DNA from: an uncultured Gemmatimonadales bacterium
Lineage (GTDB): Bacteria > Gemmatimonadota > Gemmatimonadetes > Gemmatimonadales > Gemmatimonadaceae
Length of the DNA stretch: 49,399 bases
Direction: 5' to 3'
NCBI GenBank assembly: GCA_963850905.1
Contig: CAWKMU010000002.1
Span: 1 to 49,399, forward strand
Shown here piece by piece: positions 14,844 to 42,569 of the stretch (position 1 is its first letter; every line of letters begins with the position of its first letter). The notes beneath the pieces are model-generated. The model saw only the letters and a list, made by a program, of their open reading frames with translations. It searched no databases and was not told where the DNA came from. A program made the translations under genes and the position numbers.

Positions 14844-16877
14844 TCAGCGCGCGACGGACGCCCCGGCCGCGGCCGCTGGCGCGAGCGGGGCAGCGTAGCC
14901 GCTCTGAGACCGGGCCCGATCGGCCTGCGGCCACATGACGACGAGACCACCCAATGCCATGATCATCCCGCCATACCACACCCACCACACCAGCGGATTG
15001 AACGTAATCCGCATCTCTGCCGTCTCGCTGGGCAACACGCCGGTCAGCACCACGTACACATCTTCGCTCGGCTGCGAGTAGATACCGACCGCCGTCGACG
15101 GCTCGAACGAAGGCTCCCCGCGACTGTCGACGTGCTGCCGTTTCTCGCTTTCGATGATCGGCATCGGCCGTCCATCTCGCGTCGGCTTGAGAGAGACCGC
15201 GGTGACCTGGCGGTTGAGGGCGTCGAATCGAGACACGCCCTGACTCACGAATTGCCAGCGTTGACCGTACGGGTCAGTGGCCCCGAACGACTCGCCTGCT
15301 CGCAGCGTGATGTCGAATTCTCGTTTGAACACCAGCCCCGCAAAAGCACAGAACAACACAACGACGCCGGCATGCACGATGTAACCACCGTAACGGCGCC
15401 GATTCCGGGCGATCAGGCGGAACAACGCGACCCCCGCGTTCTCTCCGTGCATGCGCATGCGTGCTGCGACACCCTTGTAGAATTCCTGGAGGATCGTCGT
15501 AGCCACGAAGCCGGCGAGCGTGTACGCGATGAGCGCGTGTGGCTCTCGCAGTCCGAACGCCGCGAGCAGCGATCCGACGGCGACGGCTCCGAACGCCGGA
15601 GCGGCAAACTGCCGCCGTACGTTGGCGATCGACGCCCGCCGCCACGCAACGAGCGGCCCAATTCCCGTGAGCGCCAGCAATAACAGGCCGAGCGGGACGT
15701 TGACGGCGTTGAAGAACGGTGGACCGACCGTGATCTTCGTGCCGCGCACGGCCTCGCTGAGAATGGGAAACAGCGTTCCCCACAGGACGGAGAAGGCGAT
15801 GCCAACTAGTAAGACGTTGTTGTAGAGGAACGCCGCCTCGCGGCTCACCATGCTCTCGAGCTCGGCTCTCGCCTCCAGGTCCTTGAGGCGGGTCGCGACC
15901 AGATACGCCGTCAGGACCGTCGCGCTCACCAGCAGCCCGGCGAACCAGACACCGACTGGCGACTGCGCGAAGGAGTGAACGCTCGAGATGACGCCACTGC
16001 GCGTGATGAACGTCCCAAGAATCGCGAGCAGAAAGGTCGACACCACCAACACGACGTTCCATTTGCGCAACATCCCCCGCTTCTCCTGCACCATGATGGA
16101 GTGCAAGAAAGCGGTGCCGGTCAACCACGGCAGGAGCGACGCGTTCTCGACGGGGTCCCAGGCCCAGTAGCCGCCCCACCCCAGCTCGACATACGCCCAC
16201 CACATCCCCAGCGTGATGCCGATCGTGAGGAAGAACCACGAGACGAGTGACCATCGCCGGACGGCCGCCAACCATTCGCCATCCAGGCGCCGCGTGATCA
16301 GCGCCGCAATGGCAAACGCGAAGGGGATCGTCGTGGCGACGTACCCCAGATACAGGTTCGGTGGGTGGAAGGCCATCCCCGGATTCTGCAATTGGGGATT
16401 GAGGCCGTTCCCATCGATCACCTCATACGGCAGGCGCCCGTAGGGACTCGCGCCAAAGCAGAGCACTGCAAGAAAGAAGACCAGAACCGCCGACAGCGTC
16501 CCGACGACATAGGGCATGAGCGCGCGATTGTGCCCACGATTCGCCCACACGGCGATCGCGCTGTACGTCGACAGAATGAGCGCCCAGAACAACATCGAGC
16601 CCTCTTGGCCAGCCCAGAATGCGGTCAGCGTGTAGAGAGTCGGCAGATTGGCGCTCGTGTATGACGCAACGTACCGCAGCGTGAAATTATGCCGGACGAG
16701 GGCGGTCCACAGGCCGAGGGAAGCCAGGCCGACGAAGCCCCACGTCATGTAGAGCGCGCGTTCCGCCGTCTCCGCCAGATCCGCACGCCGGAAGACGCCA
16801 CCGCTAAACGACATCGCGCAAGCCCAGGCGGCAAACAGCAACGCGACCCACATCGACAGCTCGCCAATGACGATCAT
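14844..16877 (-). CDS. ccmF: Cytochrome c heme lyase CcmF/NrfE family
   Basis: 677 aa; FWAGQEGS, GLNPQLQN, FHPP.LYLGY, WAYVELGWGGYWAWDPVENASLLPW, TRSG..SSVHSFA. Confidence 0.96.
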   Translation of the reverse strand: MIVIGELSMWVALLFAAWACAMSFSGGVFRRADLAETAERALYMTWGFVGLASLGLWTALVRHNFTLRYVASYTSANLPTLYTLTAFWAGQEGSMLFWALILSTYSAIAVWANRGHNRALMPYVVGTLSAVLVFFLAVLCFGASPYGRLPYEVIDGNGLNPQLQNPGMAFHPPNLYLGYVATTIPFAFAIAALITRRLDGEWLAAVRRWSLVSWFFLTIGITLGMWWAYVELGWGGYWAWDPVENASLLPWLTGTAFLHSIMVQEKRGMLRKWNVVLVVSTFLLAILGTFITRSGVISSVHSFAQSPVGVWFAGLLVSATVLTAYLVATRLKDLEARAELESMVSREAAFLYNNVLLVGIAFSVLWGTLFPILSEAVRGTKITVGPPFFNAVNVPLGLLLLALTGIGPLVAWRRASIANVRRQFAAPAFGAVAVGSLLAAFGLREPHALIAYTLAGFVATTILQEFYKGVAARMRMHGENAGVALFRLIARNRRRYGGYIVHAGVVVLFCAFAGLVFKREFDITLRAGESFGATDPYGQRWQFVSQGVSRFDALNRQVTAVSLKPTRDGRPMPIIESEKRQHVDSRGEPSFEPSTAVGIYSQPSEDVYVVLTGVLPSETAEMRITFNPLVWWVWYGGMIMALGGLVVMWPQADRARSQSGYAAPLAPAAAAGASVAR

Positions 16878-16883
16878 TGTGCT

Positions 16884-17333
16884 TTAGCTACGGCGAGCCA
16901 CTGCGTGCTGATAGCCCGGTGTCGTGCGGTACTTGTCAGGTGCATTCTCATAGCGAGACGCGCACTTCGCGAGCAACGTCGTCGCATGAAATGTCCCGTC
17001 CGCGCCTAACCGTCCATCCACCACGACATCGGCACTGTCGGTGAACGTGTCGGGAATGATTCCTCGATACACGACGGGATAGCTCTGGTCCCCGTCGGAT
17101 ACCCGGAACGCCACCTCGCGACCACCAGGGTCGCGGCGAATGGAGCCGGGTATGACGCGCGCGCCCATCTTCACCCCCGAACCGGCCATCGACGGATCGC
17201 TCGCCACGCGCTGGGCGAGTTCTTGCGGGGTGACGTAGTAGACGCCAGTGCTCTTGATCGACGACGTCATGAGATAGGCAGCGACCCCCAGGATCACCGC
17301 TCCGCCAACGAGGAACTTGATTCGTGGCCTCAT
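16884..17333 (-). CDS. ccmE: Cytochrome c maturation heme chaperone CcmE, CxxxY variant
   Basis: N-terminal TM, YYVTP, VVYRGIIPDTF, F.ATTLLAKCASRY (Cys replaces the His of HxxxY). Confidence 0.92.
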   Translation of the reverse strand: MRPRIKFLVGGAVILGVAAYLMTSSIKSTGVYYVTPQELAQRVASDPSMAGSGVKMGARVIPGSIRRDPGGREVAFRVSDGDQSYPVVYRGIIPDTFTDSADVVVDGRLGADGTFHATTLLAKCASRYENAPDKYRTTPGYQHAVARRS

Positions 17334-18355: not shown

Positions 18356-19234
18356 CTACTTCTTCCCCCCGAAGAGCGGCGGCCGCTTCTCGAAAAAAGC
18401 GGTTAGCCCTTCGGCAAAGGCCGGCCCGTCAGCGATGCGCGCAAGCTCCTGCAACTCGCGATCGAGGTGATAATCGAGCTGGTCCACGCCCGCGGCCTGA
18501 TTCAGGAGTGCCTTCGCGATGCCCTGTGCCTGCGTTGGGCCCGCCGCTACGCGCTGGGCGATCTCGAGGACGTCGTCCAGGAACCCGGCTGTCGGCAGCA
18601 CGCCTGTGATGAGTCCCCTGCAGAGCGCCTCGCCAGCCGAGAGCCTCGGATTGAGCAGTACCAACTCCATCGCTTGGCGGAGTCCGATCAGCCTCGGCAG
18701 GAAGAACGTGGAGCTCTCGGCACCGGTCAGGCCGGTCTTGTGGTAGGCCCACTCGAAGGTCGCGCGCTCCGACGCAAAGACGAGATCGCAGCACATGGCA
18801 AGTCCGAACCCGCCCGCCGCGGCGACGCCGTCCACCGCGGCGATGAACGGCTTGGGCGCTCGCTTGATCTCCGAAATCGTGCTGTGGATGTACTCGAGAA
18901 TCTCCTTGAAGCTCTCGCCGTAGCCACCAGTCGTCGGCGTCCCGTCCGGATGCAGGTACGCGAAGTCGGCCGCGTTCCCGCGTTGCCGTACGTATTTCAG
19001 ATCGGCTCCGCTGCAGAACACGCCGCCCGACCCGGTGAGCACAACACATCGAATGTCCGGTGCGCGGGCCAACTCGAGCCCCGCGCGGCGGAGCTCTTGC
19101 GCCGTCGCGACGTCCAGAGAATTGAACCGTTCCGGCCGGTCAATGGTGATCGTGCCTACCGGCCCAGCTCGCGAGATCTGGACGTGGCGCATCGGGGGTC
19201 GTTCCGCCCGTGGCGGCGCAGCGCTGGATTCCAC
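18356..19234 (-). CDS. Enoyl-CoA hydratase/isomerase (crotonase) family protein
   Basis: ITIDRPERFNSL, FCSGADL, KPFIAAVDGVAAAGGFGLAMCCDL, EGLTAFFEKRPP; begins 21 bp after the hypE stop. Confidence 0.92.
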   Translation of the reverse strand: MESSAAPPRAERPPMRHVQISRAGPVGTITIDRPERFNSLDVATAQELRRAGLELARAPDIRCVVLTGSGGVFCSGADLKYVRQRGNAADFAYLHPDGTPTTGGYGESFKEILEYIHSTISEIKRAPKPFIAAVDGVAAAGGFGLAMCCDLVFASERATFEWAYHKTGLTGAESSTFFLPRLIGLRQAMELVLLNPRLSAGEALCRGLITGVLPTAGFLDDVLEIAQRVAAGPTQAQGIAKALLNQAAGVDQLDYHLDRELQELARIADGPAFAEGLTAFFEKRPPLFGGKK

Positions 19235-19255: not shown

Positions 19256-20329
19256 TCAGCAAATGCGTGGCAACGGGTCGCCTTCCACTTCGGTCATGAG
19301 CCGCCGTCCGATCCCCGTGTCGAGCACGACCCGTCCGGCGGGGCCGGCAGTGCACTCGCCGATGAGCGCTGCGTCCTTGCCCAGGGGATGCGCACGCAAC
19401 GCCGCTAGCACACGCTCGACCACGAGATCGTCTCCGCGCACCACTACGATCGCTTTGCCCTCGTTGGCGATCTGGAATGGGTCGAGCCCCAGCAGCTCGG
19501 CGGCTGAGCGCACCGCTGCATGGATTGGCACGGTCTGTTCGTGGATCATGATGCACACACCTGCCTTTTCTGCCATCTCGTGGAGGCAACTGGCGACGCC
19601 GCCACGCGTGGGATCCTTCATCGCGACGATGGCGCCATCGGCTGCTGCGAGCGCGGACCGAACGAGCCCGTTCAGAGGTGCCACGTCGGAGCGCAACTCC
19701 TGTTCGAACGAGAGACCGTGCCGCTTGACCATGAGGGCGATCCCGTGGTCGCCGACTGTGCCCGTGACGATGAGCCGGTCACCGAGTTGAAGCCCGGCAT
19801 CGGAGACCACGGCGCGCGCGAGCCCGACGCCGGTCGTCACCAGGACCAACCCGTCGACTTCCCCGCGGCCCATGACCTTGGTGTCTCCCGTGACGACTGT
19901 CGTCTCCGCTTCCGCGCACGCCTCTACCATCGAACGGTGCACGCGCTCGAGCTCGGACCGCGGGAACCCATCTTCCACGATGACGGCGCAGGTGAGGCCG
20001 AGTGGATCGGTCGCACCCATCATGGCCAGATCGTTGACCGTCCCACAGATCGCGAGGCGCCCGATGTCGCCCCCAGGGAACACGATGGGATGAATGACGT
20101 GGGCGTCCGTTGTCACCACGAGCCATCCGTCCGGCACCGGGATGGCCGCCCCGTCATCCATGGCGGCGAGTCCGATCACGCGCCCACCGTTCAGATTCCG
20201 GATCGCTGGATAGCCTGTCGCGAGCGTCTCCTCAATGAGGCGACGCATCGCACGCCCCCCGGCACCATGCCTCAACGTGACAGCACGGTCCGCCATCGGG
20301 ATCGGTGGGACCTTCACCGCGCTGGTCAT
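19256..20329 (-). CDS. hypE: Hydrogenase maturation carbamoyl dehydratase HypE
   Basis: HGAGG, FPGGDIGRLA.CGTVNDLAMMGA, GDTKV, DPTRGG, ANEGK, C-terminal LPRIC; ATGA overlap with hypD stop. Confidence 0.96.
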   Translation of the reverse strand: MTSAVKVPPIPMADRAVTLRHGAGGRAMRRLIEETLATGYPAIRNLNGGRVIGLAAMDDGAAIPVPDGWLVVTTDAHVIHPIVFPGGDIGRLAICGTVNDLAMMGATDPLGLTCAVIVEDGFPRSELERVHRSMVEACAEAETTVVTGDTKVMGRGEVDGLVLVTTGVGLARAVVSDAGLQLGDRLIVTGTVGDHGIALMVKRHGLSFEQELRSDVAPLNGLVRSALAAADGAIVAMKDPTRGGVASCLHEMAEKAGVCIMIHEQTVPIHAAVRSAAELLGLDPFQIANEGKAIVVVRGDDLVVERVLAALRAHPLGKDAALIGECTAGPAGRVVLDTGIGRRLMTEVEGDPLPRIC

Positions 20330-21459
20330 AGCTCGGGATGCCCGCCGTACTGATGCCAAATGCGGCACGTCCCTTCACTACTCACCATGCACGCGCCGAC
20401 CGGACTGTCGGGCACGCATTCGCGGCCGAACAGGGAGCAGTTCGACGGAGAGGCAATGCCGGCCATGATGTCGCCGCAGACGCACAGTTGCGTGAGCGCA
20501 GCTGGCGCGTGTCGCCACAATCGCTGCAGGTCGATGGAAAATCGGTGTCGCGCGTCGAGATGCGCGAACTCGTCACGCAGTCGCAAGTTTCCATTGGGCA
20601 CGTGCGCAATGCCACGCCAGCGGCCGCCAGTAGTCCGAAAGACACGCCAGAGCTGGGCTTGCGCGTTTCGATTGCCCGCCGCAGTGACACATCGCGGAAA
20701 CATGTTCACCACGCGCGGCGTGCGATCCCGCACGAGCTCGACCAGCTTGACGAGGCCCGCCAGAATGTCGAGCGGCTCGAACCCGGCTACGACGACGGGG
20801 ATCTGATGTCGCTCGACGAATCGCTCGAAGATTGCCCACCCCGTGATCGTGGCCGCGTGGCCGGCGGCGAGGAAGCCCTCGACCCGCGTGCCGGGCATCT
20901 CCGCAACGATCTCCATGACCGGTGGGATGTACTTGTGGGCAGAGAGAACGGAGAAATTCGGAGGGGGATCGTCCAGAATGACCGCGGCAGTCGCGACGGC
21001 TGTCGTCTCGAACCCGCTGGCGAAAAAGACGACCTCCTCGCTCGTGTCTCGTGCGAGCTCGACGGCCTGCGTCGCACTGTACACCACGTCGACACGCGCA
21101 CCAGCACCCAGCACGTCGGCGAGTGAGTACGCGCTGCCCGGGACCTTGAGCATGTCCCCGTACGTCGCGATCCGCACGCCGTCTTGCGCGAGCACGACGG
21201 CTTCATCGACCTCTGGCAGGTCTGTGACGCACACTGGGCAGCCCGGGCCCATAATGACGTCGAGCGCGCGCGGTAGCACCGCGCGAAGACCGAACTTGGC
21301 GATGGCCTGCTCGTGGCTCCCGCAGACGTGCATCAGGGAGATGGGCGAGCGACCAGTTTCGGTGCAGAGCCGTTCGAGCGCTTGCGCGAGGGCGTGCGCG
21401 CGTGTGGAATCTCGGAACTTGAGCTCACTGCCTGCTTGGAGCGTCACAAGGTCGGACAT
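20326..21459 (-). CDS. hypD: Hydrogenase maturation protein HypD
   Basis: MHVCGSHE, GPGCPVCVT, GFETT, GFEPLDIL, PVGACMVSSEGTC. Confidence 0.96.
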   Translation of the reverse strand: MSDLVTLQAGSELKFRDSTRAHALAQALERLCTETGRSPISLMHVCGSHEQAIAKFGLRAVLPRALDVIMGPGCPVCVTDLPEVDEAVVLAQDGVRIATYGDMLKVPGSAYSLADVLGAGARVDVVYSATQAVELARDTSEEVVFFASGFETTAVATAAVILDDPPPNFSVLSAHKYIPPVMEIVAEMPGTRVEGFLAAGHAATITGWAIFERFVERHQIPVVVAGFEPLDILAGLVKLVELVRDRTPRVVNMFPRCVTAAGNRNAQAQLWRVFRTTGGRWRGIAHVPNGNLRLRDEFAHLDARHRFSIDLQRLWRHAPAALTQLCVCGDIMAGIASPSNCSLFGRECVPDSPVGACMVSSEGTCRIWHQYGGHPEL

Positions 21460-21743
21460 TGGCTGCCTCCCACGCCGCTTGCATTGATCTCGCCACGGAC
21501 GTCGCTCGCCATCAGGTCTGCGTCCGAGTCCGCGAGCAACCGCTCATACAGTGCCAGCGTCTCACCAATCTCAGAGGCGGGAATTTTCCGGATCGCGAAC
21601 CCGACGTGGTTGAGGATGTAGTCACCCGGGATGACCGGTTCGTCGATCACGTCGAGCCGGGTCTCGCGACGGACACCCCAGAAATCGACGATCGCCACTC
21701 GGTCGTTGACCTGGACGACTTGGCCCGGCACACCTAAGCACAT
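21444..21743 (-). CDS. hypC: Hydrogenase maturation chaperone HypC
   Basis: MCLGVPG...PGDYILNHVGFAI. Confidence 0.96.
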   Translation of the reverse strand: MCLGVPGQVVQVNDRVAIVDFWGVRRETRLDVIDEPVIPGDYILNHVGFAIRKIPASEIGETLALYERLLADSDADLMASDVRGEINASGVGGSQCPTL

Positions 21744-24085
21744 TGGTCCGCTCCTCGCCCCACCCAGGGCTGATCGAGCCCCGCGGCGCGCACCGCGGCC
21801 GCAACGGCAACCTGGCCATAACTCACGCCACCGTCATTGGCCGGCAGTCCGCACGGCACCAGCACGCGGAGGCGGCGACGCGTCAGCTCCTCGGCCAAGC
21901 CGGACAAGAGGCGAGCGTTCTGAAATACGCCGCCGCCCAGCGCGACAGTCGTTACGCCAGCGACGTCGCATGCGCGGACGACCGCCGCTGCGGTGACCGA
22001 GACAATGGTGTCGTGCCAGGACGCGGCGAGCACTGCGCGATCGTCCCCCCGTTGGGCACGCTCGCCCAATGCGACCAATGGCGGCACCGGATCGAACAGG
22101 ATCTCCGGTGGTGACTCGGCGGCGAGCGGGAAGACCGCTCCAGCGTGTCGGCCAGCCAGCGCCTCCAGCTCCATCGCTGCCTGCCCCTCGAATTGCGCTC
22201 GTTGTCGAAGGCCAAGCACGGCCGCGGCCGCGTCGAACAGGCGCCCCATTGACGAGGCGAGTGGCGCGTTCAGTCCGCGTCGGGCTTGGAGGAGCACCAG
22301 CTCTTGTTCGCGCAGCGAGATGCCACAGAACGCGAGGCGGAAGCTGGGAGCTGCATGCGGCGCACCCGCCAGATAACCCACGACCGTGCGCCACGGGTTC
22401 GCGATAGCGAGCTCGCCGCCCGGGAGCGGGACGTAGGGCAGATGTGCGACGCGCGTGTACCCCGCGAGATCGGCCAGCAGCAACTCGGCACCCCACAGGT
22501 GCCCGTCGGCCCCGTAGCCGGTGCCGTCCCAGGCGACGCCGAGGGCCGGTTCGGTGAATCCATGCTCGGCGAGGACGGCCGCAATGTGCGCGTGGTGGTG
22601 CTGCACGACGACGACCTCGCTCGTGCCGAGCTCGTGGGCGAGCTGGTCCGCGACCTCTGTCGACGCGTAGCCTGGGTGTGCGTCGCGGGCGATCGTGGAC
22701 GGGTGGATGCGATAGAGTCGACATTGATCGGCAATCACCCACCTGTAACGTTCGATCGACTCGACCGTATCGAGATCGCCAATATGCTGGCTCACCCACA
22801 CCGAGCGGCCTGCCCCCACCGCGATCGTGGATTTCTGCTGGGCGCCGAGTCCAATGATGCTGCCCGGAGCTGCGACCGGCAGTTCGATCGGCAGTGACGT
22901 ATACCCACGCGAGCGTCGGATGAACTGCAGGCCGCCGGCAGCGCTGCGGACGACAGAGTCGTCGACAGGCCGCACGATCTCGCGGTCATGCAGCAGGAAA
23001 CCATCAGCAATGCGAGCGAGGTCGCGACGTGCGGCGCCCAGATCCGTGATGATGGGTGCGCCACGCCAGTTGCCGCTCGTCATGACGAGGGGTCTACGCA
23101 CCGCGTCGAGCAACAGGCAGTGTAGCGGCGTGTACGGGAGCATGATGCCGATCGTGCGCATTCCCGGCGCGACAAACGGGGCCAGCCCGGGATTGGCGCC
23201 CGCGCTCAAGAGGACGATGGGCCGCTCGGCACTCGCGAGGAGGCGAGCTTCGTCCGGGGATACGCGCGCCAGCTGCCGCGCCTCCTCCACCGTTCGGACC
23301 ATGATGGCCAACGGCTTCGCTTCCCGCCCCTTCCGCTCCCGCAAGCGAGCGACCGCCCCCTCGTGTGTGGCCAGCACGGCAAGGTGAAATCCGCCCAGGC
23401 CGCGGAGTGCCAGGACTCCGCCGGCAGCCACGGTTGCCGCGGCCGCGCGGAGTGCAGCCTCCGTGCCGACGACGCGCGCGGCGGGGAGAGCAGCTTCGTA
23501 CCACAGCTCTGGCCCACACGCGGGGCAACTGTTCGTTTGGCTATGATACCGGCGATCGGTGGGCGATCGGTACTCCGCCGCGCATCGCCGACATGCGACA
23601 AAAGCACGCATGCTCGTGCGGGTGCGATCATATGGCAATGCGTCAATCAGGGAGTAGCGCGGCCCGCAGTCGGTGCACGTGATGAATGGATAACGGAACC
23701 GCACGTTCGACGGGTCAAACAGCTCCGCCTCGCACGACGTACAGATTGCGACATCGGGAGGCAGCGGCGACCGGGTGTCGCGCGCGTCCTCGCTCTCCAG
23801 AATGGAGAACGCGGGCGCGTGGACCGGCGGCGCGTCGGCCAAATCCAGTGACACGATGCGTGCACGCGGCGGCGCGTGGCGCTCGAGCTGGCGGAGAAAG
23901 TCGCTCACCGCGACGCCGTCGCCATCAACGAGGATCTCGACCTCACCCGCGCAGTTGCGGACCCAGCCTCGCAGGCCAAGGCCAGTCGCGAGCCGATAGA
24001 CAAATGGACGGAACCCCACGCCCTGAACGATGCCGGTGACCCGCACGCGTCTGGCGGCTGATGCTCGTTCAGCAGTGCCCGTCAT
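21734..24085 (-). CDS. hypF: Carbamoyltransferase HypF
   Basis: GIVQGVGFRPFVY acylphosphatase domain, two CxxC-X18-CxxC zinc fingers, GLGGFHLA, SQHIGDL, QHHHAH, DGTGYG, SSMGRLFD, NDGGVSYGQ; ATGA overlap with hypB stop. Confidence 0.96.
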   Translation of the reverse strand: MTGTAERASAARRVRVTGIVQGVGFRPFVYRLATGLGLRGWVRNCAGEVEILVDGDGVAVSDFLRQLERHAPPRARIVSLDLADAPPVHAPAFSILESEDARDTRSPLPPDVAICTSCEAELFDPSNVRFRYPFITCTDCGPRYSLIDALPYDRTRTSMRAFVACRRCAAEYRSPTDRRYHSQTNSCPACGPELWYEAALPAARVVGTEAALRAAAATVAAGGVLALRGLGGFHLAVLATHEGAVARLRERKGREAKPLAIMVRTVEEARQLARVSPDEARLLASAERPIVLLSAGANPGLAPFVAPGMRTIGIMLPYTPLHCLLLDAVRRPLVMTSGNWRGAPIITDLGAARRDLARIADGFLLHDREIVRPVDDSVVRSAAGGLQFIRRSRGYTSLPIELPVAAPGSIIGLGAQQKSTIAVGAGRSVWVSQHIGDLDTVESIERYRWVIADQCRLYRIHPSTIARDAHPGYASTEVADQLAHELGTSEVVVVQHHHAHIAAVLAEHGFTEPALGVAWDGTGYGADGHLWGAELLLADLAGYTRVAHLPYVPLPGGELAIANPWRTVVGYLAGAPHAAPSFRLAFCGISLREQELVLLQARRGLNAPLASSMGRLFDAAAAVLGLRQRAQFEGQAAMELEALAGRHAGAVFPLAAESPPEILFDPVPPLVALGERAQRGDDRAVLAASWHDTIVSVTAAAVVRACDVAGVTTVALGGGVFQNARLLSGLAEELTRRRLRVLVPCGLPANDGGVSYGQVAVAAAVRAAGLDQPWVGRGADQCA

Positions 24086-24771
24086 GCGACGACCGCCTGA
24101 GTGGCAACCCGCGCCTCGCACACTAGGCGCCGAAGCAGCGCGTACCACTCATTCAGGCCCTCGCCGGTCAGCGCCGACGTGGTGACGCACGCGAGGTTCG
24201 GATTGACGTCTCGCGCACATCGCGTCGCTGCCTCGAGGTCGAACGGCACGTAGGGGAGCAAATCGATCTTCGTAAACACTGCGTATTGCGCGCGCTGGAA
24301 CACCGACGGGTACTTCTCTGGTTTATCCTCGCCCTCGGTCACGGAGAACAGCACCACTTTCGCCGATTCCCCGAGATCCCACGCGGCGGGACAAACGAGA
24401 TTGCCGACATTCTCGATGAACACGAGTTGGACATCTCGGAGCGTGATCGCGTCCAGTGCGGTGTCGACCTGCCGAGCGTCGAGGTGGCACGCGCCCCCGG
24501 TGACGACGGCATGGACCAACTGCGCGGTATGCCGCTCGAGGCGTCGGGCGTCGTTCTCCGTCTGCACGTCTCCTACGATCACCGCTGTCGCTATCTCGTT
24601 GCCCAGCGCATCGAGCGTACGTTCGAGCAGAGTCGTCTTACCAGCTCCCGGCGACGAGACGAGATTGATGGCGACGGTCCCGCTGGCGTGGAGTCTTTCC
24701 CTGATCCCGCGGGCGATGTCGTCGTTGCGCGCCATGACGCGCTCGCGCAGCTCAATGCGCCGGATGGTCAT
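24082..24771 (-). CDS. hypB: Hydrogenase nickel-insertion GTPase HypB
   Basis: SSPGAGKTTLLE, TGGACHLDA, ENVGNLVCPA, SVTEGEDKP.KYP, TKIDL; short form without His-rich N-terminus. Confidence 0.95.
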   Translation of the reverse strand: MTIRRIELRERVMARNDDIARGIRERLHASGTVAINLVSSPGAGKTTLLERTLDALGNEIATAVIVGDVQTENDARRLERHTAQLVHAVVTGGACHLDARQVDTALDAITLRDVQLVFIENVGNLVCPAAWDLGESAKVVLFSVTEGEDKPEKYPSVFQRAQYAVFTKIDLLPYVPFDLEAATRCARDVNPNLACVTTSALTGEGLNEWYALLRRLVCEARVATQAVVA

Positions 24772-29446: not shown

Positions 29447-29463
29447 GTCAGGTAATTCCCGAC
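29447..29463. promoter_or_regulatory. Palindromic candidate transcription-factor site in the divergent hydrogenase/cytochrome control region
   Basis: GTCAGG TAATT CCCGAC, about 100 bp upstream of the 29565 start. Confidence 0.55.
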
Positions 29464-29564
29464 TTGCCGCAGGTGGGCCGAATACAGACGTTCCACCTCT
29501 GATCATTTCAGCAGCACCTCGACGGTGCTGGACGCAGTCGGTCACCTGAAGCGAGCACACGGAC

Positions 29565-34737: not shown

Positions 34738-36305
34738 GGCTGCGCGTGGTTCTAATGCTCCTCGCCTCGGGCTCAGTCGCAGGAGCCCAGCCGCAGGTGC
34801 AGGACTCCTTCCCTCATGTTCGCCACGCGAAGATGTTCCCCACCTGTGAGGCGTGTCACGCCGGCATCGCCACTGGCAACACCGCGACCAGCTACCCCGC
34901 CCCCGCGCTATGCGCCAATTGCCACGACGGCCGCGTCGCACGTGTCGTCACGTGGAATGGTCCGGCACTCCACCCGACCAATCTCGCGTTTTCTCACCAG
35001 CGGCACGCGCAGGCAGAGGCTCGAGCCGGCAGCACGATTATCCCGTGTGCGAGTTGTCACGCGCGGCCCGACAGCGCGCGAATATGGATGGCCGTCGGGC
35101 GCGCACCCCCCGTAGCGTGCCTTGCGTGCCATGCGCACGCGGCCAGCGGCCATCTCGCGGACGACAACGGGTGTACCACGTGCCATGTGCCACTGACCCG
35201 CGCCACCACCTTGACGACGGCAACAATCGCTGCGTTTCCGCGTCCACCATCCCACGACCAACCTGGGTTTTTGTCCGCGCACGCCCCCAGAACCGCACCA
35301 GATGAGGCGCGGTGCGCGACGTGCCACACCCGGGAAAGCTGTGAACGGTGCCACGTGAATGCTGACAAACTCGCCACCATTATCGAGCTCGGATCCGACG
35401 CGCGCGTCGCACGCATAGTTGCAGGCCGGGCAGGAGTCTACCCGGTCCCGACCGACCACCAAACATCGCGGTGGGCGACGGACCACGCAGATGCCGCGCG
35501 GCGCTCCATTGCGACATGTGCAAATTGTCACGCCCAGTCGAGCTGCAAGGCCTGTCACATTGGAGTCGGCCCGATCGCGTCCATAGCTGCGCTCCCCGTT
35601 GCTGTCCCCGGCAAGGCCCAGGGGGTCGTGGTCCGACACACGCCGACCGGCGCGCCACCCATACCCACGCCGGGGATCAACCCGGCGCCTCCACAAGCGG
35701 CGCGCACCCCGGATTCGGGAAATGCACGCGCCAGCGTCCGGGGTCCGGGTGGCTCCGCGCCCGTTGCGGCGCGCGATAGCGGTGGCCTCTACCTGGTGCA
35801 GGTTCACTGGCCCGGCTTCCTCACATCGCACGCCCCGATTGCCGCGACCGGTCAGCTCGCCTGCGCGAGCTGCCACACCCAGCGCTTCTGTACCGACTGT
35901 CACGCCGGAGAGCAGCGCCGCAATTTCCACCCCGCGAACTTCATCGCACGACATGCCAACGAATCGTACAACCGCCAGATCGACTGCACGAATTGTCATA
36001 ACCCTGAGGCATTTTGTCGCACGTGCCACTTCAATGTCGGCGTAGGCACGCGCAATCCGCGGAATGCCGCGTTCCATACCGGCCAACCGCTGTGGCTGCT
36101 CCAACACGGACAAGCGGCTCGCCAGTCACTCGAGAGCTGCACGACCTGCCATCAACAACAGGACTGCATGCGCTGCCACTCAACACTCGGGTGGGGTGTC
36201 AATCCGCACGGGCCTGGCTTTGATCCGCGACGCATGGCCGCTCGCAACCTCCAGGTCTGCCTCGAGTGCCACCTGACGAATCCGTTGACCAGCCCGGGGC
36301 AATAG
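34734..36305 (+). CDS. Secreted 16-heme c-type cytochrome
   Basis: 523 aa; leader MRLRVVLMLLASGSVAGA; 16 CxxCH; FPH..H and FSH..H cytochrome c3/c7-like distal His motifs; five doubled CxxCH pairs. Confidence 0.9.
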   Translation: MRLRVVLMLLASGSVAGAQPQVQDSFPHVRHAKMFPTCEACHAGIATGNTATSYPAPALCANCHDGRVARVVTWNGPALHPTNLAFSHQRHAQAEARAGSTIIPCASCHARPDSARIWMAVGRAPPVACLACHAHAASGHLADDNGCTTCHVPLTRATTLTTATIAAFPRPPSHDQPGFLSAHAPRTAPDEARCATCHTRESCERCHVNADKLATIIELGSDARVARIVAGRAGVYPVPTDHQTSRWATDHADAARRSIATCANCHAQSSCKACHIGVGPIASIAALPVAVPGKAQGVVVRHTPTGAPPIPTPGINPAPPQAARTPDSGNARASVRGPGGSAPVAARDSGGLYLVQVHWPGFLTSHAPIAATGQLACASCHTQRFCTDCHAGEQRRNFHPANFIARHANESYNRQIDCTNCHNPEAFCRTCHFNVGVGTRNPRNAAFHTGQPLWLLQHGQAARQSLESCTTCHQQQDCMRCHSTLGWGVNPHGPGFDPRRMAARNLQVCLECHLTNPLTSPGQ

Positions 36306-36473: not shown

Positions 36474-37352
36474 GTGGATGACATCCATCTCACCATAGGT
36501 CCATGCGCAACCATCTCTGTGGCTCTCGCGTTTAGTCTGACGGTCGCCGGCTGTCAATCGAAGCAGTCCCCCGCGTCTGCGCCGCCACCGCCGCCCCCGG
36601 CGTCCGTGACCATACACGCCAGAGACTACGCGTTCGATGCTCCGGACGAGATACCTGCAGGCGTCACCACATTCCACCTCGTGAACGATGGGCCGGGCTT
36701 GCACCACGCCCTGTTCGTGCGCCTCGACAGCGGCAAAGCGGTTGGTGACCTGCTGGCGTCGCTCAAGAAGCACAGCCCCCTGCCTGGCTGGGCGACATTC
36801 GTCGGCGGTCCCAACGTGCCCGATCCAGGCAAAGAGTCGGTCGCCACGCTCGACCTTACGCCCGGCAACTACGTGATCATTTGCATCCTCGACATGCCGG
36901 GCGGTGTGCCGCACTACATGAGGGGAATGTTTCGCCCGCTAACCGTGACGGCTGCTGCTGCCACGACCGCCGCGGCGCCCAAGGCGGTCATACCGGTCGC
37001 CGACAACGCGATTCAGCTCAGCGACTTCCGGTTCGTGCTCGTGGACTCGATCACAGCAGGTACGCACACGATCCAAGTCGTGACCGCCCCCGGGCAGCCA
37101 CACGAGGTGCTCGTCGTACAGCTCGACAGCGGCAAGACGGGGCAGGATTATGTCAATTGGACTCAGGCGATGAAGGGCCCCGCGCCCGGCCACGCGATCG
37201 GCGGGACGGCCGCTGCCGGCCCAGGGGTCGTCCAAGTGTTCACTGCGACGTTCACGCCTGGCAATTACCTGCTGATCTGCTTCGTCCCGGACATGAAGAC
37301 CGGAAAGCCCCACTTCATGGAGGGGCATATGCGCACGATCAAGGTGAATTGA
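36474..37352 (+). CDS. Lipoprotein with two cupredoxin-like domains
   Basis: Signal ending VAGC; duplicated H...PGNY(V/L)(I/L)IC-X9/10-H-x-M-x-G-(H)M copper-ligand pattern. Confidence 0.75.
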   Translation: MDDIHLTIGPCATISVALAFSLTVAGCQSKQSPASAPPPPPPASVTIHARDYAFDAPDEIPAGVTTFHLVNDGPGLHHALFVRLDSGKAVGDLLASLKKHSPLPGWATFVGGPNVPDPGKESVATLDLTPGNYVIICILDMPGGVPHYMRGMFRPLTVTAAAATTAAAPKAVIPVADNAIQLSDFRFVLVDSITAGTHTIQVVTAPGQPHEVLVVQLDSGKTGQDYVNWTQAMKGPAPGHAIGGTAAAGPGVVQVFTATFTPGNYLLICFVPDMKTGKPHFMEGHMRTIKVN

Positions 37353-37397: not shown

Positions 37398-37967
37398 GTG
37401 TCTGACCACGAATTTCCGCTCGGCCAGAGTGCAGAAGCGTCAAGCCCGATGACCGACTCCCCGGTTGGACGGCGCCGCTTCCTGCAATGGGTGAGTGGCA
37501 TCGGCGCCACACTGGGCGCTGTGTTGATTGGCGTACCGGTGCTTCGCGCGTTCTTTTCCCCAGCGCTCCCGAGGGCGCGATCCGATAGCTGGGTGAAGGT
37601 CGCCGACGACGTAGCCGTCATCGATACCGGTGTCCCGGTGCGCGTGACCTTCGTCGAGAACCGCGTCGATGCGTGGCTCGAAGTTCAGCAGATCAACAGC
37701 GTGTGGCTCTACACGGAAGACGGAAAGACCTTCAAGGCGTACAATCCGCATTGCACGCACCTGGGGTGCGCGTATGGATACAACAGCGAAACCAAGAACT
37801 TCGCCTGCCCGTGCCACCGCGGACAGTTCGACGTCAAGACAGGACGCGTGCTGGCGGGCCCCCCGCCACGTGGGCTGGACGAGTTGAGAACGGACGTGCG
37901 CGATGACGCCGTCTGGGTAGAGTATAAGGACTTTCGCCTCGGCGTCTCGCACCAGATCGAGGCGTGA
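37398..37967 (+). CDS. Rieske [2Fe-2S] subunit of a quinol:cytochrome c reductase
   Basis: GRRRFL Tat motif plus TM, CTHLGC and CPCH boxes, GPPPRGL. Confidence 0.94.
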   Translation: MSDHEFPLGQSAEASSPMTDSPVGRRRFLQWVSGIGATLGAVLIGVPVLRAFFSPALPRARSDSWVKVADDVAVIDTGVPVRVTFVENRVDAWLEVQQINSVWLYTEDGKTFKAYNPHCTHLGCAYGYNSETKNFACPCHRGQFDVKTGRVLAGPPPRGLDELRTDVRDDAVWVEYKDFRLGVSHQIEA

Positions 37968-39472
37968 TGTTCCAGGCCGCGCGCCTCTGGATCGACGAGC
38001 GCGTAGACCTCACCGGCCTGCGCCGGACGCTGCTCGAGCGCAAGGTGCCGGCGGGGCTCACATGGTGGCACACGCTCGGCAGCGCCACACTGACGGTGCT
38101 CGTGGTGCAGGTCGTGACGGGAGTTGTCCTCGCCATGTACTACGCGCCCTCGCCGGATCACGCCTACGATAGCATTCGCTATATCGACCACACGGTCGCT
38201 AGCGGAGCAGTGCTCCGAGGCATCCATCACTGGGGTGCGTCGGCGATGGTTGTGCTCGTCTGCGCCCACATGGTACGGGTCTTCACGATGGGCGCCTACA
38301 AGTATCCGCGTGAGATCAATTGGCTCCTCGGCGTGTGCCTGTTGTTCGTCGTGTTGGGTTTCGGATTTACCGGGTACCTGCTGCCATGGGACCAGAAGGC
38401 CTACTGGGCGACGCAGGTCGGCACGAACATCGCCGGCACGACGCCGGTCATCGGCGGAGTCTTGGTCGAGCTCCTCCGCGGCGGAAGCCAACTCGGTGCC
38501 GCCACGCTCACACGATTCTACTCGCTGCACGTGCTCGTCCTGCCGATCTTGATCGGGATTGTCGTGTTACTGCACCTCGCCCTCGTCGTCCGCCAGGGCA
38601 TCGCATCGGCACCCGCGGTGCTCGAGCGGGACGCGCCGCCACGGACGGACGACGGGGCCTACGCCAATTTCTATCGCGAGACCTACACAAAGTCGAAGGC
38701 CGACGGCGTTCGGTTCTGGCCCGACATCATCACGAAGGACATTGTGGTCGCGACGGGTGTCGTCGCGGTGCTCGTCCTGTTGGGGTGGCTGCAGGGAGCC
38801 GGTCTCGAGCCCGCCGCTGATCCGACCGACACTGGGTACGTGCCGCGACCCGAGTGGTATTTCCTGCCGTTCTTTCAATTGCTGAAGCTCGTGCCCGGCT
38901 CCATCGAGAGCTTGATCGCTGTGGGCGTGCCTGGGCTGATCGCGTTGGTGTTGCTCCTGCTCCCGTTCTTCGATCGGCGCAGCATCCGCTCGCTCAATCG
39001 GCGCCCGGTGGCGCTGCTCTCGCTCGCCGGGACGGCCGCGGCGGCGGCGCTCCTCTTCGGTTCGTCGGTCCGTGGTGCCCCGTCCCCGCCGAGTGTGCCG
39101 GAAGTGGGGCGGCCACTGACCTACGTCGAGCGCACGGGTCGAACGTTGTATGTGCAGCAGCAATGCGGCGGTTGCCACGAGATCAAGGGCCAGCCAGTGC
39201 AAGAGAGACTGAGTGGAGCCCCGAATGCGCCAGAGCTCACGGAGATCGGCCTCTTGCACTCAACCAATTGGTTGCACAGCTTCATCGAGGAGCCGAGGCG
39301 CTTTCATCCGGACTCGAAGATGCCAGCGTTCGGGCCACCGACGCTCAGCCACCAGGAAATCGAGGAACTGGCACAGTATCTCTCCTCGTTGCGTGGCCCG
39401 AACTGGGCGACCCAGCAACCCGAGTTCCGCGACACCTTCCCCGAACTGGTGAAATCCAAGGGCACACCATGA
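37964..39472 (+). CDS. Cytochrome b fused to a C-terminal monoheme cytochrome c
   Basis: RGIHHWGAS...HMVRVF, FTGYLLPWDQKAYWAT, RFYSLH...LLHL, PRPEWYFL, then CGGCH...MPAF. Confidence 0.94.
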   Translation: MMFQAARLWIDERVDLTGLRRTLLERKVPAGLTWWHTLGSATLTVLVVQVVTGVVLAMYYAPSPDHAYDSIRYIDHTVASGAVLRGIHHWGASAMVVLVCAHMVRVFTMGAYKYPREINWLLGVCLLFVVLGFGFTGYLLPWDQKAYWATQVGTNIAGTTPVIGGVLVELLRGGSQLGAATLTRFYSLHVLVLPILIGIVVLLHLALVVRQGIASAPAVLERDAPPRTDDGAYANFYRETYTKSKADGVRFWPDIITKDIVVATGVVAVLVLLGWLQGAGLEPAADPTDTGYVPRPEWYFLPFFQLLKLVPGSIESLIAVGVPGLIALVLLLLPFFDRRSIRSLNRRPVALLSLAGTAAAAALLFGSSVRGAPSPPSVPEVGRPLTYVERTGRTLYVQQQCGGCHEIKGQPVQERLSGAPNAPELTEIGLLHSTNWLHSFIEEPRRFHPDSKMPAFGPPTLSHQEIEELAQYLSSLRGPNWATQQPEFRDTFPELVKSKGTP

Positions 39473-39813
39473 CCGTGCATGTGGTGACGATCCTCCTACT
39501 ACTGCTCGCACCGCATGCGGGGGGCGTTCTGGGGCGCGACGTCGCTTCGCAAGGCGATAGTGCCAAGATCCTCTATAGCCAGAACTGCCTACAATGTCAC
39601 GGCGTGCGAGGACTCGCGCCGAAGGGCATCAAGGCAACATTTCCCAAGATCCCCACGTTTGACTCGGCGTTTAGCGCGTCGCACACACAGGACTCGATCG
39701 TGAAAGTGCTCACGCACGGGAAGAGTACAGACATGCCGTCGTTCAGCGGCAAGCTCACGCCGGCAGAGATGGCGACCGTCGCCAAGTACGTTCGGGGACT
39801 CGCATCGAAATGA
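39469..39813 (+). CDS. Monoheme class I cytochrome c
   Basis: 114 aa; hydrophobic leader, YSQNCLQCHG, MPSFSGKLT; ATGA-coupled to cytochrome b. Confidence 0.88.
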   Translation: MTVHVVTILLLLLAPHAGGVLGRDVASQGDSAKILYSQNCLQCHGVRGLAPKGIKATFPKIPTFDSAFSASHTQDSIVKVLTHGKSTDMPSFSGKLTPAEMATVAKYVRGLASK

Positions 39814-39855: not shown

Positions 39856-40257
39856 ATGATGACCGCCGAAATGCGTGGCGCCACCGCCGCGTTGAACGCG
39901 CGGGCCGCGCTCCAACTCACAGCGGCCCAGGTGAGCCAGCTCGCAACCGTCAAGGCGAAACTGGATCAATGGCACAAGGCCGCCATGGACACCATGCAAG
40001 GGTTGCACCGGCAGATCAACGCGCTCGCGACGGCGCGCCAGGTCGATGAGCGTGCGGTGCGCGCGACCTTCGATCGGATGGGGCAGCTCCACGGGGATAT
40101 TGGCTTTGAGATGTTCCGCGCGCAGCAGGAGGTGGCCGGGATCCTCACCGCGCAGCAGAGCGACTCACTGGCGGCAGCGGGTCGAGCACAGATGAAGTCG
40201 GGCAAGATGGATGGCGATGGGCATGTGCTCCTAGCGGCGAGTTGGCCGCACGCCTGA
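39856..40257 (+). CDS. Spy/CpxP-like LTxxQ helical protein, apparently lacking a signal peptide
   Basis: LQLTAAQ and ILTAQQ motifs flanking a Met-rich helical hairpin. Confidence 0.6.
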   Translation: MMTAEMRGATAALNARAALQLTAAQVSQLATVKAKLDQWHKAAMDTMQGLHRQINALATARQVDERAVRATFDRMGQLHGDIGFEMFRAQQEVAGILTAQQSDSLAAAGRAQMKSGKMDGDGHVLLAASWPHA

Positions 40258-40265
40258 GGACCTCC

Positions 40266-42569
40266 GTGTTCACCACGCAAGACGCCCTTGAGTATCACGC
40301 TCGTGGTCGGCCCGGTAAGATCGCGGTCGTACCCACCAAGCCGCTGACCAACCAGCGGGATCTGTCGCTCGCCTACTCACCAGGCGTTGCCGACCCTTGC
40401 CTGGCGATTCAGCAGAACCCAGAAGCGGCCGATCGCTACACCGCCAAGCGCAATCTCGTCGCCGTCGTGACGAACGGCACCGCCGTGCTCGGTCTCGGCA
40501 ACATTGGCGCTCTCGCCAGCAAACCCGTCATGGAGGGCAAAGCAAATCTGTTCAAGCGGTTTGCCGACATTGATGTCTTTGACCTGGAGGTGGGGTCGGA
40601 GGACCCTGAAGATGTGATCCGATTCTGTCAGCTGCTCGAGCCCACGGTGGGCGGCATTAATCTCGAGGACATCCGTGCGCCGGCGTGCTTCCAGATCGAG
40701 CAGGCGCTGCGTCGATCACTCAAGATCCCCGTTTTTCACGATGACCAGCACGGCACCGCGATCATTGTGGGCGCCGCCCTCCTAAACGCGGTCGAGCTCG
40801 TCGACAAAGCAATCGAGGATGTCCGCGTCGTCTTCTGCGGCGCCGGCGCTGCGGCCGTGGCCACCGCCGAGCACCTCGTGCGCTTGGGGATCGCGCGGGA
40901 ACATGTCGTCTTGTGCGATCGGAACGGGGTAGTCACTCGCGACCGCACGGAAGGAATGGATCCCTACAAGGCGCGTTTCGCCACGACGCCGGGCGCGCGG
41001 ACGATCACCGACGCACTCGTGGGAGCCGACGTGTTCATTGGGCTTTCCGCCTCCGGCGCTATCGCTCCGGCCTCGCTCCGGGCGATGGCGCGCGATCCGA
41101 TCATCTTCGCGTTGGCGAACCCAGTGCCAGAGATCATGCCGGACCAGGCGCGTGAGATCCGGCCGGACGCCATCCTGGCGACCGGCCGGAGCGACTTTCC
41201 GAACCAGGTGAACAATGTCCTCGGGTTCCCCTCCATCTTTCGTGGGGCCTTGGATGCCCGCGCGACGGCGATCAACGAAGAGATGAAAATGGCCGCCACC
41301 CGGGCGCTGGCGAGCCTCGCGCGGGAAGAGGTACCTGACGCTGTGGCGCGGCTCTATGGTGTCCCGGACATGCACTTCGGCCGGTCATATCTCATCCCGG
41401 TCCCGTTCGACCCACGGATCCTGATTACGGTCGCGCCGGCGGTCGCGTGGGCGGCCGTGGCCAGCGGCGCGGCATTGGGCATGATTGATGTTGACGAGTA
41501 CCGAGACCGCCTGCGGGCCCGATTCGACCGGGCGCAGGGGATCATGCACGGTCTCGTGCAGCGCGCTCGGCGCGAGCCGAAGCGGGTGGTGTTTCCCGAG
41601 GGCACCAACCACACCATTCTACGCGCGGCGCGAGCCGTCGCTGACGATGACCTCGCGCACCCGATCCTGCTCGGCTCGCTGGCATCCGTCGAGCGAGAGG
41701 CTGTGGCGGCGGGTGTCGTCCTCGATGGCATCGATGTACAGGATCCGGCGACCTCACCCCAACGGGCTACGCTCGCACATGCGCTCTGGACGCGGCGCCA
41801 GCGCAAAGGGCTGAGCCTCGCCGAGGCCACTCACCGCGTCTATAACGCCAACTATTTCGGCGCGCTGCTCGTCGCCACCGGGTACGCCGACGCACTGGTC
41901 TCGGGTGCTACGCTGCACTACCCCGAAACGCTCCGGCCGGCACTCGAAGCGGTGGGGCCGCAGGAGGGTGTCGACATCGTGAGTGGGATGTATATCCTGG
42001 CATTCGACCAGCAGGTCGTCTTCTGCGCTGACACGACGGTGAACATCGACCCGTCGGCTTCGCAGTTGGCCCAGATCGCACTCGCGACCGCCCGAGTGGT
42101 CCGCAGCTTCGGGATCGAGCCACGCATAGCGATGCTCTCGTTCGCGAATTTCGGGTCCGTCAGGCATCCCGCAGCGAGCCGGGTCGCCGAGGCTGTGGCG
42201 CTCGTGCGGCAGACCGACAGCACGCTCATGATCGACGGTGAGCTGCAAGCCGATACGGCGCTAGACGAGGAAAAGCTCCGCGCAATGTACCCGTTCAGCG
42301 CGCTTCGCGAGCCGGCAAACGTGCTCATTTTTCCGGACCTCAACGCGGGCAATATCGGCTATAAGCTGCTGCACCGGTTGGGCGGTGCGACCGCCATCGG
42401 ACCAATCCTGCTTGGGATGGCTAAGCCGATCCACATCCTGGAAGCCGGCGCCGATGTCGGCGACATTGTGAACATGACGGCGATCGCGGTGGTCGACGCG
42501 CAAGAGCGAACAGCCGTCGTGGGAGGGACGCCCTCAGTGGCGACTCGACAATCCAAGCGCTCCGGGTGA
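40266..42569 (+). CDS. maeB: NADP-dependent malic enzyme with phosphotransacetylase-like domain
   Basis: [83 protein letters not shown] before GTG 40266. Confidence 0.96.

Follow-up and report, generated by a model that had tools for sequence, protein, structure and literature searches.

A group 1 [NiFe] hydrogenase encoded back to back with a predicted porin-cytochrome conduit in Gemmatimonadota

We analyzed a 49,399-bp stretch of DNA (the window) from an uncultured Gemmatimonadales bacterium, which is the entire contig C2 (CAWKMU010000002.1) of a six-contig, 4.49-Mb assembly that is 82% complete. The window encodes a membrane-bound [NiFe] hydrogenase on the minus strand and, divergently oriented from it, a plus-strand run of genes for multiheme cytochromes and a beta-barrel protein, referred to below as the conduit (Table 1). 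An earlier note, made from the sequence alone, had read the two arms as a candidate island for H2-coupled extracellular electron transfer. Profile searches and translations located all the genes named there at the places claimed, with the Rieske, cytochrome b-c, cytochrome c and maeB genes identified by profile matches. Two genes go unnamed in the note, a CpxP/Spy-like one ahead of maeB and a cupin gene (Table 1). The divergent region, put at about 400 bp, measures 395 bp, and a motif count agreed with the 9-, 20- and 16-heme cytochromes and their total of 45 hemes. Nowhere else in the assembly are large multiheme cytochrome genes clustered, and outside the window contig only two open reading frames contain at least three heme-type motifs.

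Table 1. Genes and features of the window in order of position.
Feature	Position	Strand	Basis
ccmF, heme lyase	14844..16877	-	Pfam CcmF_C, Cytochrom_C_asm
ccmE, heme chaperone	16884..17333	-	Pfam CcmE; CxxxY motif (KCASRY)
Cupin gene	between crotonase gene and ccmE
Crotonase-family gene, end of hyp run	18356..19234	-	Pfam ECH_1
hypA, hypB, hypF, hypC, hypD, hypE, maturation genes	19256..25069	-	Pfam and NCBIfam matches
hyaD, maturation protease	25005..25517	-	TIGR00072, PF01750
hyaC, di-heme cytochrome b anchor	25504..26286	-	TIGR02125, 188.6 bits (cut-off 121.5)
hyaB, group 1 [NiFe] hydrogenase large subunit	26286..28001	-	PF00374, E 2.7e-231; L1 QRICGVC, L2 DPCMAC
hyaA, hydrogenase small subunit with Tat signal and membrane helix at the C-terminus	27988..29169	-	TIGR00391; ECTGC, GACAHWGN
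Divergent intergenic region, 395 bp	29170..29564	.	hyaA ATG at 29169 to first cytochrome ATG at 29565
Nonaheme lipoprotein, OcwA/OmhA fold	29565..31115	+	9 motifs (8 CxxCH, 1 Cx4CH); lipobox Cys25
20-heme cytochrome, two N-terminal membrane helices, NrfH/NapC-like start	31223..33265	+	NrfH 2j7a, E 1.1e-8
Outer-membrane beta-barrel, 22 strands, plug-less, no named family	33262..34737	+	AlphaFold2, pLDDT 89.8
16-heme exported cytochrome	34734..36305	+	16 motifs; complex score 0.88
Putative copper lipoprotein, two putative type 1 copper sites	36474..37352	+	two His...Cys-x-His-x-Met sets
Rieske protein	37398..37967	+	PF00355; box II CPCHRGQF
Fused cytochrome b - subunit IV - cytochrome c	37964..39472	+	Pfam matches, motifs; PEWY
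Monoheme cytochrome c	39469..39813	+	PF13442, PF00034
CpxP/Spy-like helical protein	39856..40257	+	weak matches below cut-off
maeB, malic enzyme	40242..42569	+	profile matches

The hydrogenase arm carries all the marks of a group 1 uptake hydrogenase: a small subunit with a twin-arginine translocation (Tat) motif (SRREFL), the L1 and L2 cysteines in the large subunit, a cytochrome b anchor and maturation genes. In group 1 enzymes, a HyaC-type cytochrome b feeds electrons into the quinone pool, and HyaC of the window likely reduces menaquinone. Hydrogenases of the O2-tolerant type (group 1d) are marked by two extra cysteines at the proximal cluster. The proximal-cluster motifs ECTGC and GACAxxG[NS] were present in 38/38 and 39/39 matches, respectively, and extra cysteines were found in none. 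By this rule the hydrogenase looks to be of the O2-sensitive type, which would favour an anoxic acceptor. Both hyaB and hyaC were found at 17 of the best 80 related loci, which are the basis of all counts out of 80 given here; these loci come mostly from metagenome-assembled genomes (MAGs) of Gemmatimonadaceae or Gemmatimonadales, include no cultured isolate, and many of them end at contig edges. HypA (24752-25012, minus strand) is about 85 amino acids long and lacks the zinc-binding CxxC pairs; comparably short matches occur at other loci, and the short form looks like a natural variant.

The plus-strand genes for the 20-heme protein, the barrel and the 16-heme protein overlap at their stop and start codons. 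The barrel gene, described as beta-barrel-like in the earlier note, encodes a protein of 491 amino acids with zero heme motifs, and its AlphaFold2 model (predicted local distance difference test, pLDDT, in Table 1; 119 sequences) is a barrel of 22 antiparallel strands. The model has no plug, because the strands begin directly after the signal peptide, and its turns are short on one face, whereas the loops of the opposite face reach up to 46 residues. Structure searches returned TonB-dependent receptor barrels (Z 18.1, root-mean-square deviation (rmsd) 5.0, 361 residues aligned), ushers and MtrB at 7-14% identity. MtrB itself aligned with Z 16.1 (rmsd 4.5, 352 aligned, 8% identity) and Foldseek gave a similar result. 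As far as the model goes, these matches show a large outer-membrane barrel with no specific kinship. The protein was assigned to no Pfam or NCBIfam family, singly or over 105 homologs, and gave no sequence match in the PDB at E 10. MtrB and PioB models of Pfam and NCBIfam matched none of the 105 barrel members at E 0.01, and one of the 105 weakly matched a Geobacter family (GSU2204, E 0.0086). The ESM Atlas clusters that matched the barrel consist of unnamed Gemmatimonadota proteins, and a search of 1.84 billion representatives yielded 589 matches, none of which bears a name.

The 16-heme protein has a signal of the cleavable type, and all 16 of its motifs are invariant in 105 rows of its alignment. 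Its gene adjoins the barrel gene at 78/80 related loci. A complex prediction of the barrel with the 16-heme protein scored 0.88, compared to 0.00 for the best of three controls; this level is reached by 116/157 solved complexes and by 2/215 mismatched pairs, a calibration that is rough in that custom alignments were used. The runs share at least 63% of contacts, and the pLDDT of the partner is at least 71. The confident interface comprises residues 336-494 of the 16-heme protein (hemes 10-16), which contact 21 of the 22 strands and the long loops. Hemes 10-16 are thus predicted to sit inside the barrel, and the predicted interface is laid out as it would be for a wire that runs through a porin. 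The N-terminal hemes are c3/c7-like, with matches to HmcA and c7, and for the C-terminal part that is inserted in the barrel in the model, the PDB contains no relative with significant sequence similarity. The whole protein has no NCBIfam match, and MtrA was found at just E 0.004 over 52 positions.

The first gene of the conduit encodes the nonaheme lipoprotein, of which the lipobox cysteine (Cys25) is invariant in 120/120 sequences. Its model (pLDDT 87) superimposed on OcwA with Z 17.9 (rmsd 3.2, 333 aligned, 25% identity) and on OmhA with Z 16.7, the next best value being 11.8, and sequence searches also yielded OcwA and OmhA. The core of these proteins, consisting of c554-like and NrfA-like hemes and a C-terminal helix bundle, is present, and the modelled fold makes the nonaheme protein a candidate surface reductase. 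Together, the barrel model, the complex prediction and the nonaheme fold match back the porin-cytochrome architecture that had been proposed. Nine histidines outside the motifs are conserved (86-100%), and no His-His pair outside the motifs is conserved. We infer from the alignment that nine such residues would suffice for full bis-His ligation, favouring electron transfer over catalysis. The fold family also allows for a different end of the path, in which the nonaheme protein would be a periplasm-facing enzyme of the NrfA family that uses electrons from H2 on a soluble acceptor, with the barrel cytochrome serving as scaffolding or in a minor role. Octaheme nitrite reductase, NrfA, HAO and MccA belong to this fold family, OcwA is reported to reduce nitrite slowly (PMC6703420), and no NrfA match was found in the 82%-complete genome. 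We consider this alternative improbable, as the nine conserved histidines could, on the ligation proposed, cap all nine hemes, the barrel and 16-heme genes adjoin at nearly all loci, and the contacts predicted between the two proteins extend to the long loops of the outer face.

The 20-heme count rests on 17 CxxCH and three Cx4CH motifs, an additional Cx4CH overlapping a CxxCH being excluded. As in NapC/NirT-type proteins, a membrane anchor is followed by a CxxCHxM motif for heme 1, and the match to PF03264 reached 21.7 bits, below the cut-off of 24.1. Exactly 20 motifs were counted in 60/62 homologs, and the CxxCHxM motif is present in 48/62. The quinol site of NapC/NirT proteins contains a Lys and an Asp/Glu. 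At the likely corresponding position, assigned without a structural alignment, most homologs carry RQ or KE and the window protein carries MQ. From its sequence, the 20-heme protein is a candidate for a quinol dehydrogenase and periplasmic wire in one. In four genomes that lack the gene at the locus (G011, G241, G302, G405), a module of cytochrome b, a 9-heme and a 22-heme gene lies a few tens of kb away, and in G049, G089 and G111 the conduit operon itself contains this module. A link to the quinone pool would therefore be kept by different means. A second multiheme cluster, of cytochrome b, 9-heme, 22-heme NapC-like, 14- or 22-heme and 11-heme genes, was noted at L143:5060-15232, L144, L145 and L146, in genomes without the 20-heme gene. 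At L059:5206-15565, a Rieske gene, a cytochrome b gene and two 9-heme genes are inserted in a conduit operon that is divergent from the hydrogenase.

To place the pairing of the two arms in the phylum, 401 evenly drawn Gemmatimonadota genomes were surveyed, and hyaB was counted when a close relative of the window hyaB was found at E 1e-60 or better. The barrel occurs in 182 and hyaB in 110 of these genomes; both occur in 106, the hydrogenase only in 4, the barrel only in 76 and neither in 215. Thus the barrel is present in 106/110 genomes with the hydrogenase and in 76/291 genomes without it. Within five families, the barrel frequency with and without the hydrogenase was 17/20 vs 10/75, 75/75 vs 42/91, 6/6 vs 4/24, 3/3 vs 2/4 and 2/2 vs 10/68. 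These statistics ignore kinship, and the Fisher value is therefore overstated. As a control, NrfA was scored, and the barrel is present in 21/35 NrfA genomes at a base rate of 45%. Since 76/182 barrel genomes have no hydrogenase, the conduit is not dedicated to H2.

Linkage was counted in the 86 of 106 both-carrying genomes for which a barrel position was available. The two genes lie on different contigs in 40 and on the same contig in 46, and in 40 of these 46 they are within 30 kb of each other, so that the arms, which the earlier note had joined from a single locus, are linked in relatives as well. The 40 linked cases comprise 27 divergent, 8 co-oriented and 5 convergent arrangements (G353 is counted via a weaker second hydrogenase match). 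Because a short shared contig forces closeness, the 28 genomes with 30 contigs or fewer were considered separately, and 18 of them are linked within 30 kb, compared to about 2% expected by chance. A back-to-back layout like that of the window, with the barrel at most 8 kb from hyaB, was found in 15 genomes of 7 genera and 2 families. The conduit is nested between hypCDE and hyaABCD-hypABF in G011, G241 and G302, and in G405 the hya-hyp run continues into the conduit. In the genus of the window, either arm was found only in G000 and G004 of 10 genomes, each of which has both; the others are 66-98% complete, and the tallies of the 61-genome set from which these counts come include one unpublished genome, G016, as a barrel-negative row; no other count draws on it. 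This patchy presence could reflect gain or loss. A recent lateral transfer is unsupported, as base composition is flat across the window (GC content 0.62-0.68).

The divergent regions between hydrogenase and conduit were also inspected. An exact TGAA-N6-TTCA palindrome is present in 8/16 of them (L044, L045, L046, L047, L048, L049, L050 and L053; shuffle mean 0.11, maximum 1), an observation made post hoc in three genera. The divergent region of the window has just a one-mismatch N7 form. The palindrome is a candidate regulator site. Another motif, GATTCC-GAAGA, was dropped as a shared element because it is present in 2/16 regions only, and a promoter and terminator search gave counts near chance level. 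The palindrome bears on the explanation that the arms cluster through a low-oxygen regulator and the assembly of costly cofactors (hyp, ccm), with neither arm feeding the other. Genes similar to ccmF near the barrel at 34/80 loci and the separation of the arms in 10 of the 28 well-assembled genomes would fit such shared regulation. The palindrome would do so in the three genera that carry it, though not in the window. We nevertheless regard it as very unlikely that regulation is all that joins the arms: NrfA, another anaerobic respiratory cytochrome, co-occurs with the barrel far more weakly, the dependence is one-way, and the linkage recurs in several gene orders.

Downstream of the conduit lies a bc module of the Rieske protein, the fused cytochrome b-c and the monoheme cytochrome c. 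High-potential Rieske proteins carry Ser and Tyr residues, both of which are absent from box II of the window protein. The close clade of the cytochrome b-c protein is present in 39/401 genomes, 32 of which also have the barrel. Of the 25 assessable genomes, 12 have it at most 17 kb from the barrel, one has it far away and 12 have it on a separate contig, and the hydrogenase, conduit and bc modules occur all together in 7 genomes of 4 genera. At L065, the order is ccmF, copper protein, Rieske, cytochrome b-c, cytochrome c, conduit and hyaABCD. The copper lipoprotein upstream of the Rieske gene had been called a di-cupredoxin; the two His...Cys-x-His-x-Met sets agree with this, but no Pfam cupredoxin match was obtained, only a weak match to the EfeO N-terminal domain (E 5.8e-4), and a structure search returned noise only. 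Beside the conduit, the copper protein was found at one of the 80 other loci (L065, 69% identity, same context) and, as a remnant of 39 residues at the corresponding place, in G004, the nearest relative; otherwise none was seen at the related loci inspected. By this distribution, the copper protein appears to be a dispensable accessory. We propose that the bc module, together with the copper protein, is an optional second branch of quinol oxidation. Of the wide island that the earlier note had drawn, the pairing of hydrogenase and conduit is conserved, but the bc module is near the barrel in about half of the assessable genomes, the copper protein is confined to a single other locus and maeB to the nearest relative.

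The bc module also enters into the main alternative, the reverse, uptake direction, in which hydrogenase and conduit would be parallel inputs to menaquinone, one from H2 and the other from reduced humics, minerals or partner cells, and electrons would go on to O2 by way of the bc complex, the cytochrome c and the copper protein. The bc module belongs to the same gene run and is near the barrel in the 12 genomes given above, other Rieske/cytochrome b modules adjoin or sit within the conduit operon elsewhere, the genome encodes two heme-copper oxidases and a bd oxidase, and uptake has been proposed for the similarly planned PCC3/PCC4 clusters (PMC5566968). We hold uptake to be rather unlikely, since it leaves the one-way dependence unexplained (hydrogenase alone in 4 genomes, conduit alone in 76), the close bc clade is present in just 32/182 barrel genomes, the proximal cluster looks O2-sensitive by the rule given above, and the nearest structural relatives of the nonaheme protein are described as reductases.

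We think it probable, with moderate confidence, that the hydrogenase and the four-protein conduit work in series and lead electrons from H2 via menaquinone and the periplasm to the cell surface. The hydrogenase would oxidise H2 and reduce menaquinone, the quinone of Gemmatimonadota (PMC9426454), and the membrane-anchored 20-heme cytochrome would re-oxidise the menaquinol. From there, the electrons would cross the 22-strand barrel along the 16-heme cytochrome and reach the OcwA-like 9-heme lipoprotein, which would pass them to external acceptors; another cell, humics and oxides of Fe(III) or Mn(IV) are candidates. Energy would be conserved via a redox loop of hydrogenase and cytochrome b. The conduit would be a general exit from the quinol pool, and H2 would be one donor that seemingly needs the conduit. 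Outward flow is favoured because an O2-sensitive hydrogenase would need an anoxic acceptor and occurs almost only together with the conduit. Genes, motifs, co-occurrence and linkage are observed, the folds and the fit of the cytochrome in the barrel come from models, and quinol activity, surface exposure, flow direction and acceptor are what we infer from them. The conduit may be reversible, so the outward and uptake readings are not exclusive.

Several observations weigh against the path from H2 to the cell surface. The Met of the CxxCHxM motif is missing in 14/62 homologs of the 20-heme protein, and 4/4 checked genomes without the 20-heme gene at the locus (the four named above) have no full-length copy. 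The lipobox is compatible with either face of the outer membrane, and the nonaheme fold family includes nitrite, sulfite and hydroxylamine enzymes (Z 8.6-11.8). The pass in the complex prediction may stem from likeness to the solved MtrAB arrangement. Hydrogenase and conduit are apart in 10/28 well-assembled genomes, and the genomes are related, by which the counts overstate independence. Finally, with two heme-copper oxidases and a bd oxidase in the genome, O2 could be the acceptor for H2. The subunit I genes of both heme-copper oxidases (C3:1394433-1395723 and C5:40305-41657) match in several frames, which suggests assembly frameshift errors or broken genes.

Of the flanking genes, the window ccmEF pair at the far end of the minus-strand run has a second copy on contig C3, with a ccmF that is 93% identical (C3:227533-229515) and a ccmE that is 89% identical. 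Also, ccmF is absent at the corresponding place in G004. The near-identical duplicates and the absence in G004 weakened the case for ccmEF as dedicated, conserved parts, and on sequence identity the window pair is best described as a recent, accessory duplicate. CxxxY in place of HxxxY at the CcmE heme site marks the Desulfovibrio-type variant of System I, whose cytochromes also use Cx4CH. Cx4CH accounts for four of the 45 heme motifs in the window. A stand-alone crotonase gene downstream of hypE is found in several genera at about 70% identity; we take it to be reminiscent of the C-terminal domain of HypX, the HypX model not being among the 25 best matches listed. On the other side, the CpxP/Spy-like protein is probably outside the redox path. 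The malic enzyme gene maeB adjoins the conduit at 1/80 loci and in G004; synteny ruled it out as a part of the system, its adjacency being restricted to the nearest relative, and it is probably an incidental neighbour. Beyond maeB, three features on the minus strand were noted. A YgaP-like (DUF2892) membrane protein (42581-43318) is 68-96% identical to proteins near the conduit or hydrogenase in G004, G144, G183, G232, G057 and L065. A membrane-anchored helical protein of 168 amino acids without a family match (43413-43919) is encoded near the barrel at 21/80 loci, where its gene often separates hyaA from the 16-heme gene, and may be an assembly factor. An operon for HlyD and an ABC-2 type exporter (44092-49215) is kept in G004.

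Gemmatimonadota are widespread, and the surveys of the phylum that we consulted report Hya and only scattered iron-cycling matches. Our literature search, with subscription journals mostly outside its coverage, found no description of the cassette or of its link to the hydrogenase. In PMC11316326, as far as its available text goes, Hya is described as widespread in Gemmatimonadota and read as O2-linked, three MtrABC operons are reported, and homologs of DFE_461-465 are called 'widely annotated'; the latter annotations may be generic matches to cytochromes of the window type. DFE-type matches are also reported for a group of MAGs that includes one Gemmatimonadota MAG (PMC13055281), and the DFE cluster is described as featuring beta-propeller proteins, not a barrel (PMC5815863). 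Groups of porin-cytochrome conduits with more than 20 hemes (PMC13264449) and, in Gemmatimonadota, one CbcL-type and two ImcH homologs (PMC6295460) are on record, and the accessible parts of PMC4245776 and PMC5566968 do not mention Gemmatimonadota. Models of MtrB/PioB-type families miss the conduit because its barrel has no family model. If the conduit works, 45% of the sampled genomes would be capable of electron exchange with the outside. We see the chances as evenly balanced that nearly half of Gemmatimonadota genomes encode an unrecognised conduit (a barrel of a new family, a wire of 16 hemes and a surface reductase of the OcwA type), that the group 1 hydrogenase serves mainly to feed it, and that the phylum is a large overlooked group of H2-oxidising reducers of minerals, humics or electrodes. 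That the hydrogenase depends on the conduit in a nearly one-way manner suggests an enrichment route, H2 with an anode or ferrihydrite, for this mostly uncultured phylum.

Among known systems, the surface candidate is closest to OcwA of Thermincola potens (6I5B) and OmhA of Carboxydothermus ferrireducens (6QVM), with which it shares the fold over most of the chain and, with OcwA, the number of nine hemes. PMC6703420 describes OcwA as a terminal reductase of the cell surface whose nine-heme fold is related to NrfA, and OmhA is described as involved in ferrihydrite reduction and unassociated with porin-cytochrome complexes in PMC7829351, which, in the text available, puts OcwA among nonahemes of Gram-negative bacteria. 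The hosts of OcwA and OmhA are Gram-positive, whereas the window comes from a diderm and its nonaheme gene accompanies a barrel gene. If the proposed path is true, a reductase of the OcwA type, which is known from the cell walls of Gram-positive bacteria, would sit on the porin complex of a diderm. Two hemes of OcwA are open and lie under His-His motifs; in the window protein, of which the model contains no hemes, no such pair outside the heme motifs is conserved.

With Desulfovibrio HmcA, the 16-heme protein shares sixteen hemes and c3-like domains. HmcA is linked to a periplasmic hydrogenase. An Hmc complex was rejected for the window, as the similarity is N-terminal only (profile positions 14-135). 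Genes for the membrane subunits of Hmc were not seen at the locus either. The PCC3/PCC4 clusters resemble the locus in being defined from genomes as a porin plus heme-rich cytochromes, for which a link to quinone at the inner membrane is proposed (PMC5566968). They use a five-helix, cytochrome b-like inner-membrane protein (SGxxG, WX3HX13H); among the four core genes of the window, none encodes such a protein. In the description of PMC5566968 most PCC3 porins are larger, with up to 42 predicted strands, and the hosts are mostly Proteobacteria.

The systems of Shewanella MtrCAB with CymA (PDB 6R2Q), MtoAB and PioAB share with the locus a cytochrome in a plug-less barrel (predicted here), a lipoprotein cytochrome and a NapC/NirT-type partner. 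The Mtr wire is a decaheme protein, whereas that of the window has 16 hemes; MtrB has 28 predicted strands (PMC4245776) compared to 22 in the window barrel, and the window lipoprotein has the OcwA fold, which is called unrelated to MtrC/OmcA in PMC6703420. Geobacter Pcc (OmbB-OmaB-OmcB) agrees with the locus in porin size, with 18-22 predicted strands there (PMC4245776) and 22 here, in a periplasmic multiheme cytochrome beside the porin and in an outer-membrane multiheme lipoprotein; the likeness of OmbB to the window barrel is judged by strand count and description, not by sequence. The periplasmic cytochrome of Pcc has 5-14 hemes (PMC4245776) vs 16 in the window, and unlike Pcc the window locus has its own membrane-anchored 20-heme cytochrome, an OcwA-like surface candidate and the tie to a hydrogenase. 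In the light of the models, the locus would work like a porin-cytochrome conduit that falls outside Mtr and fits Pcc in strand count, and its tie to an uptake hydrogenase is unusually tight.

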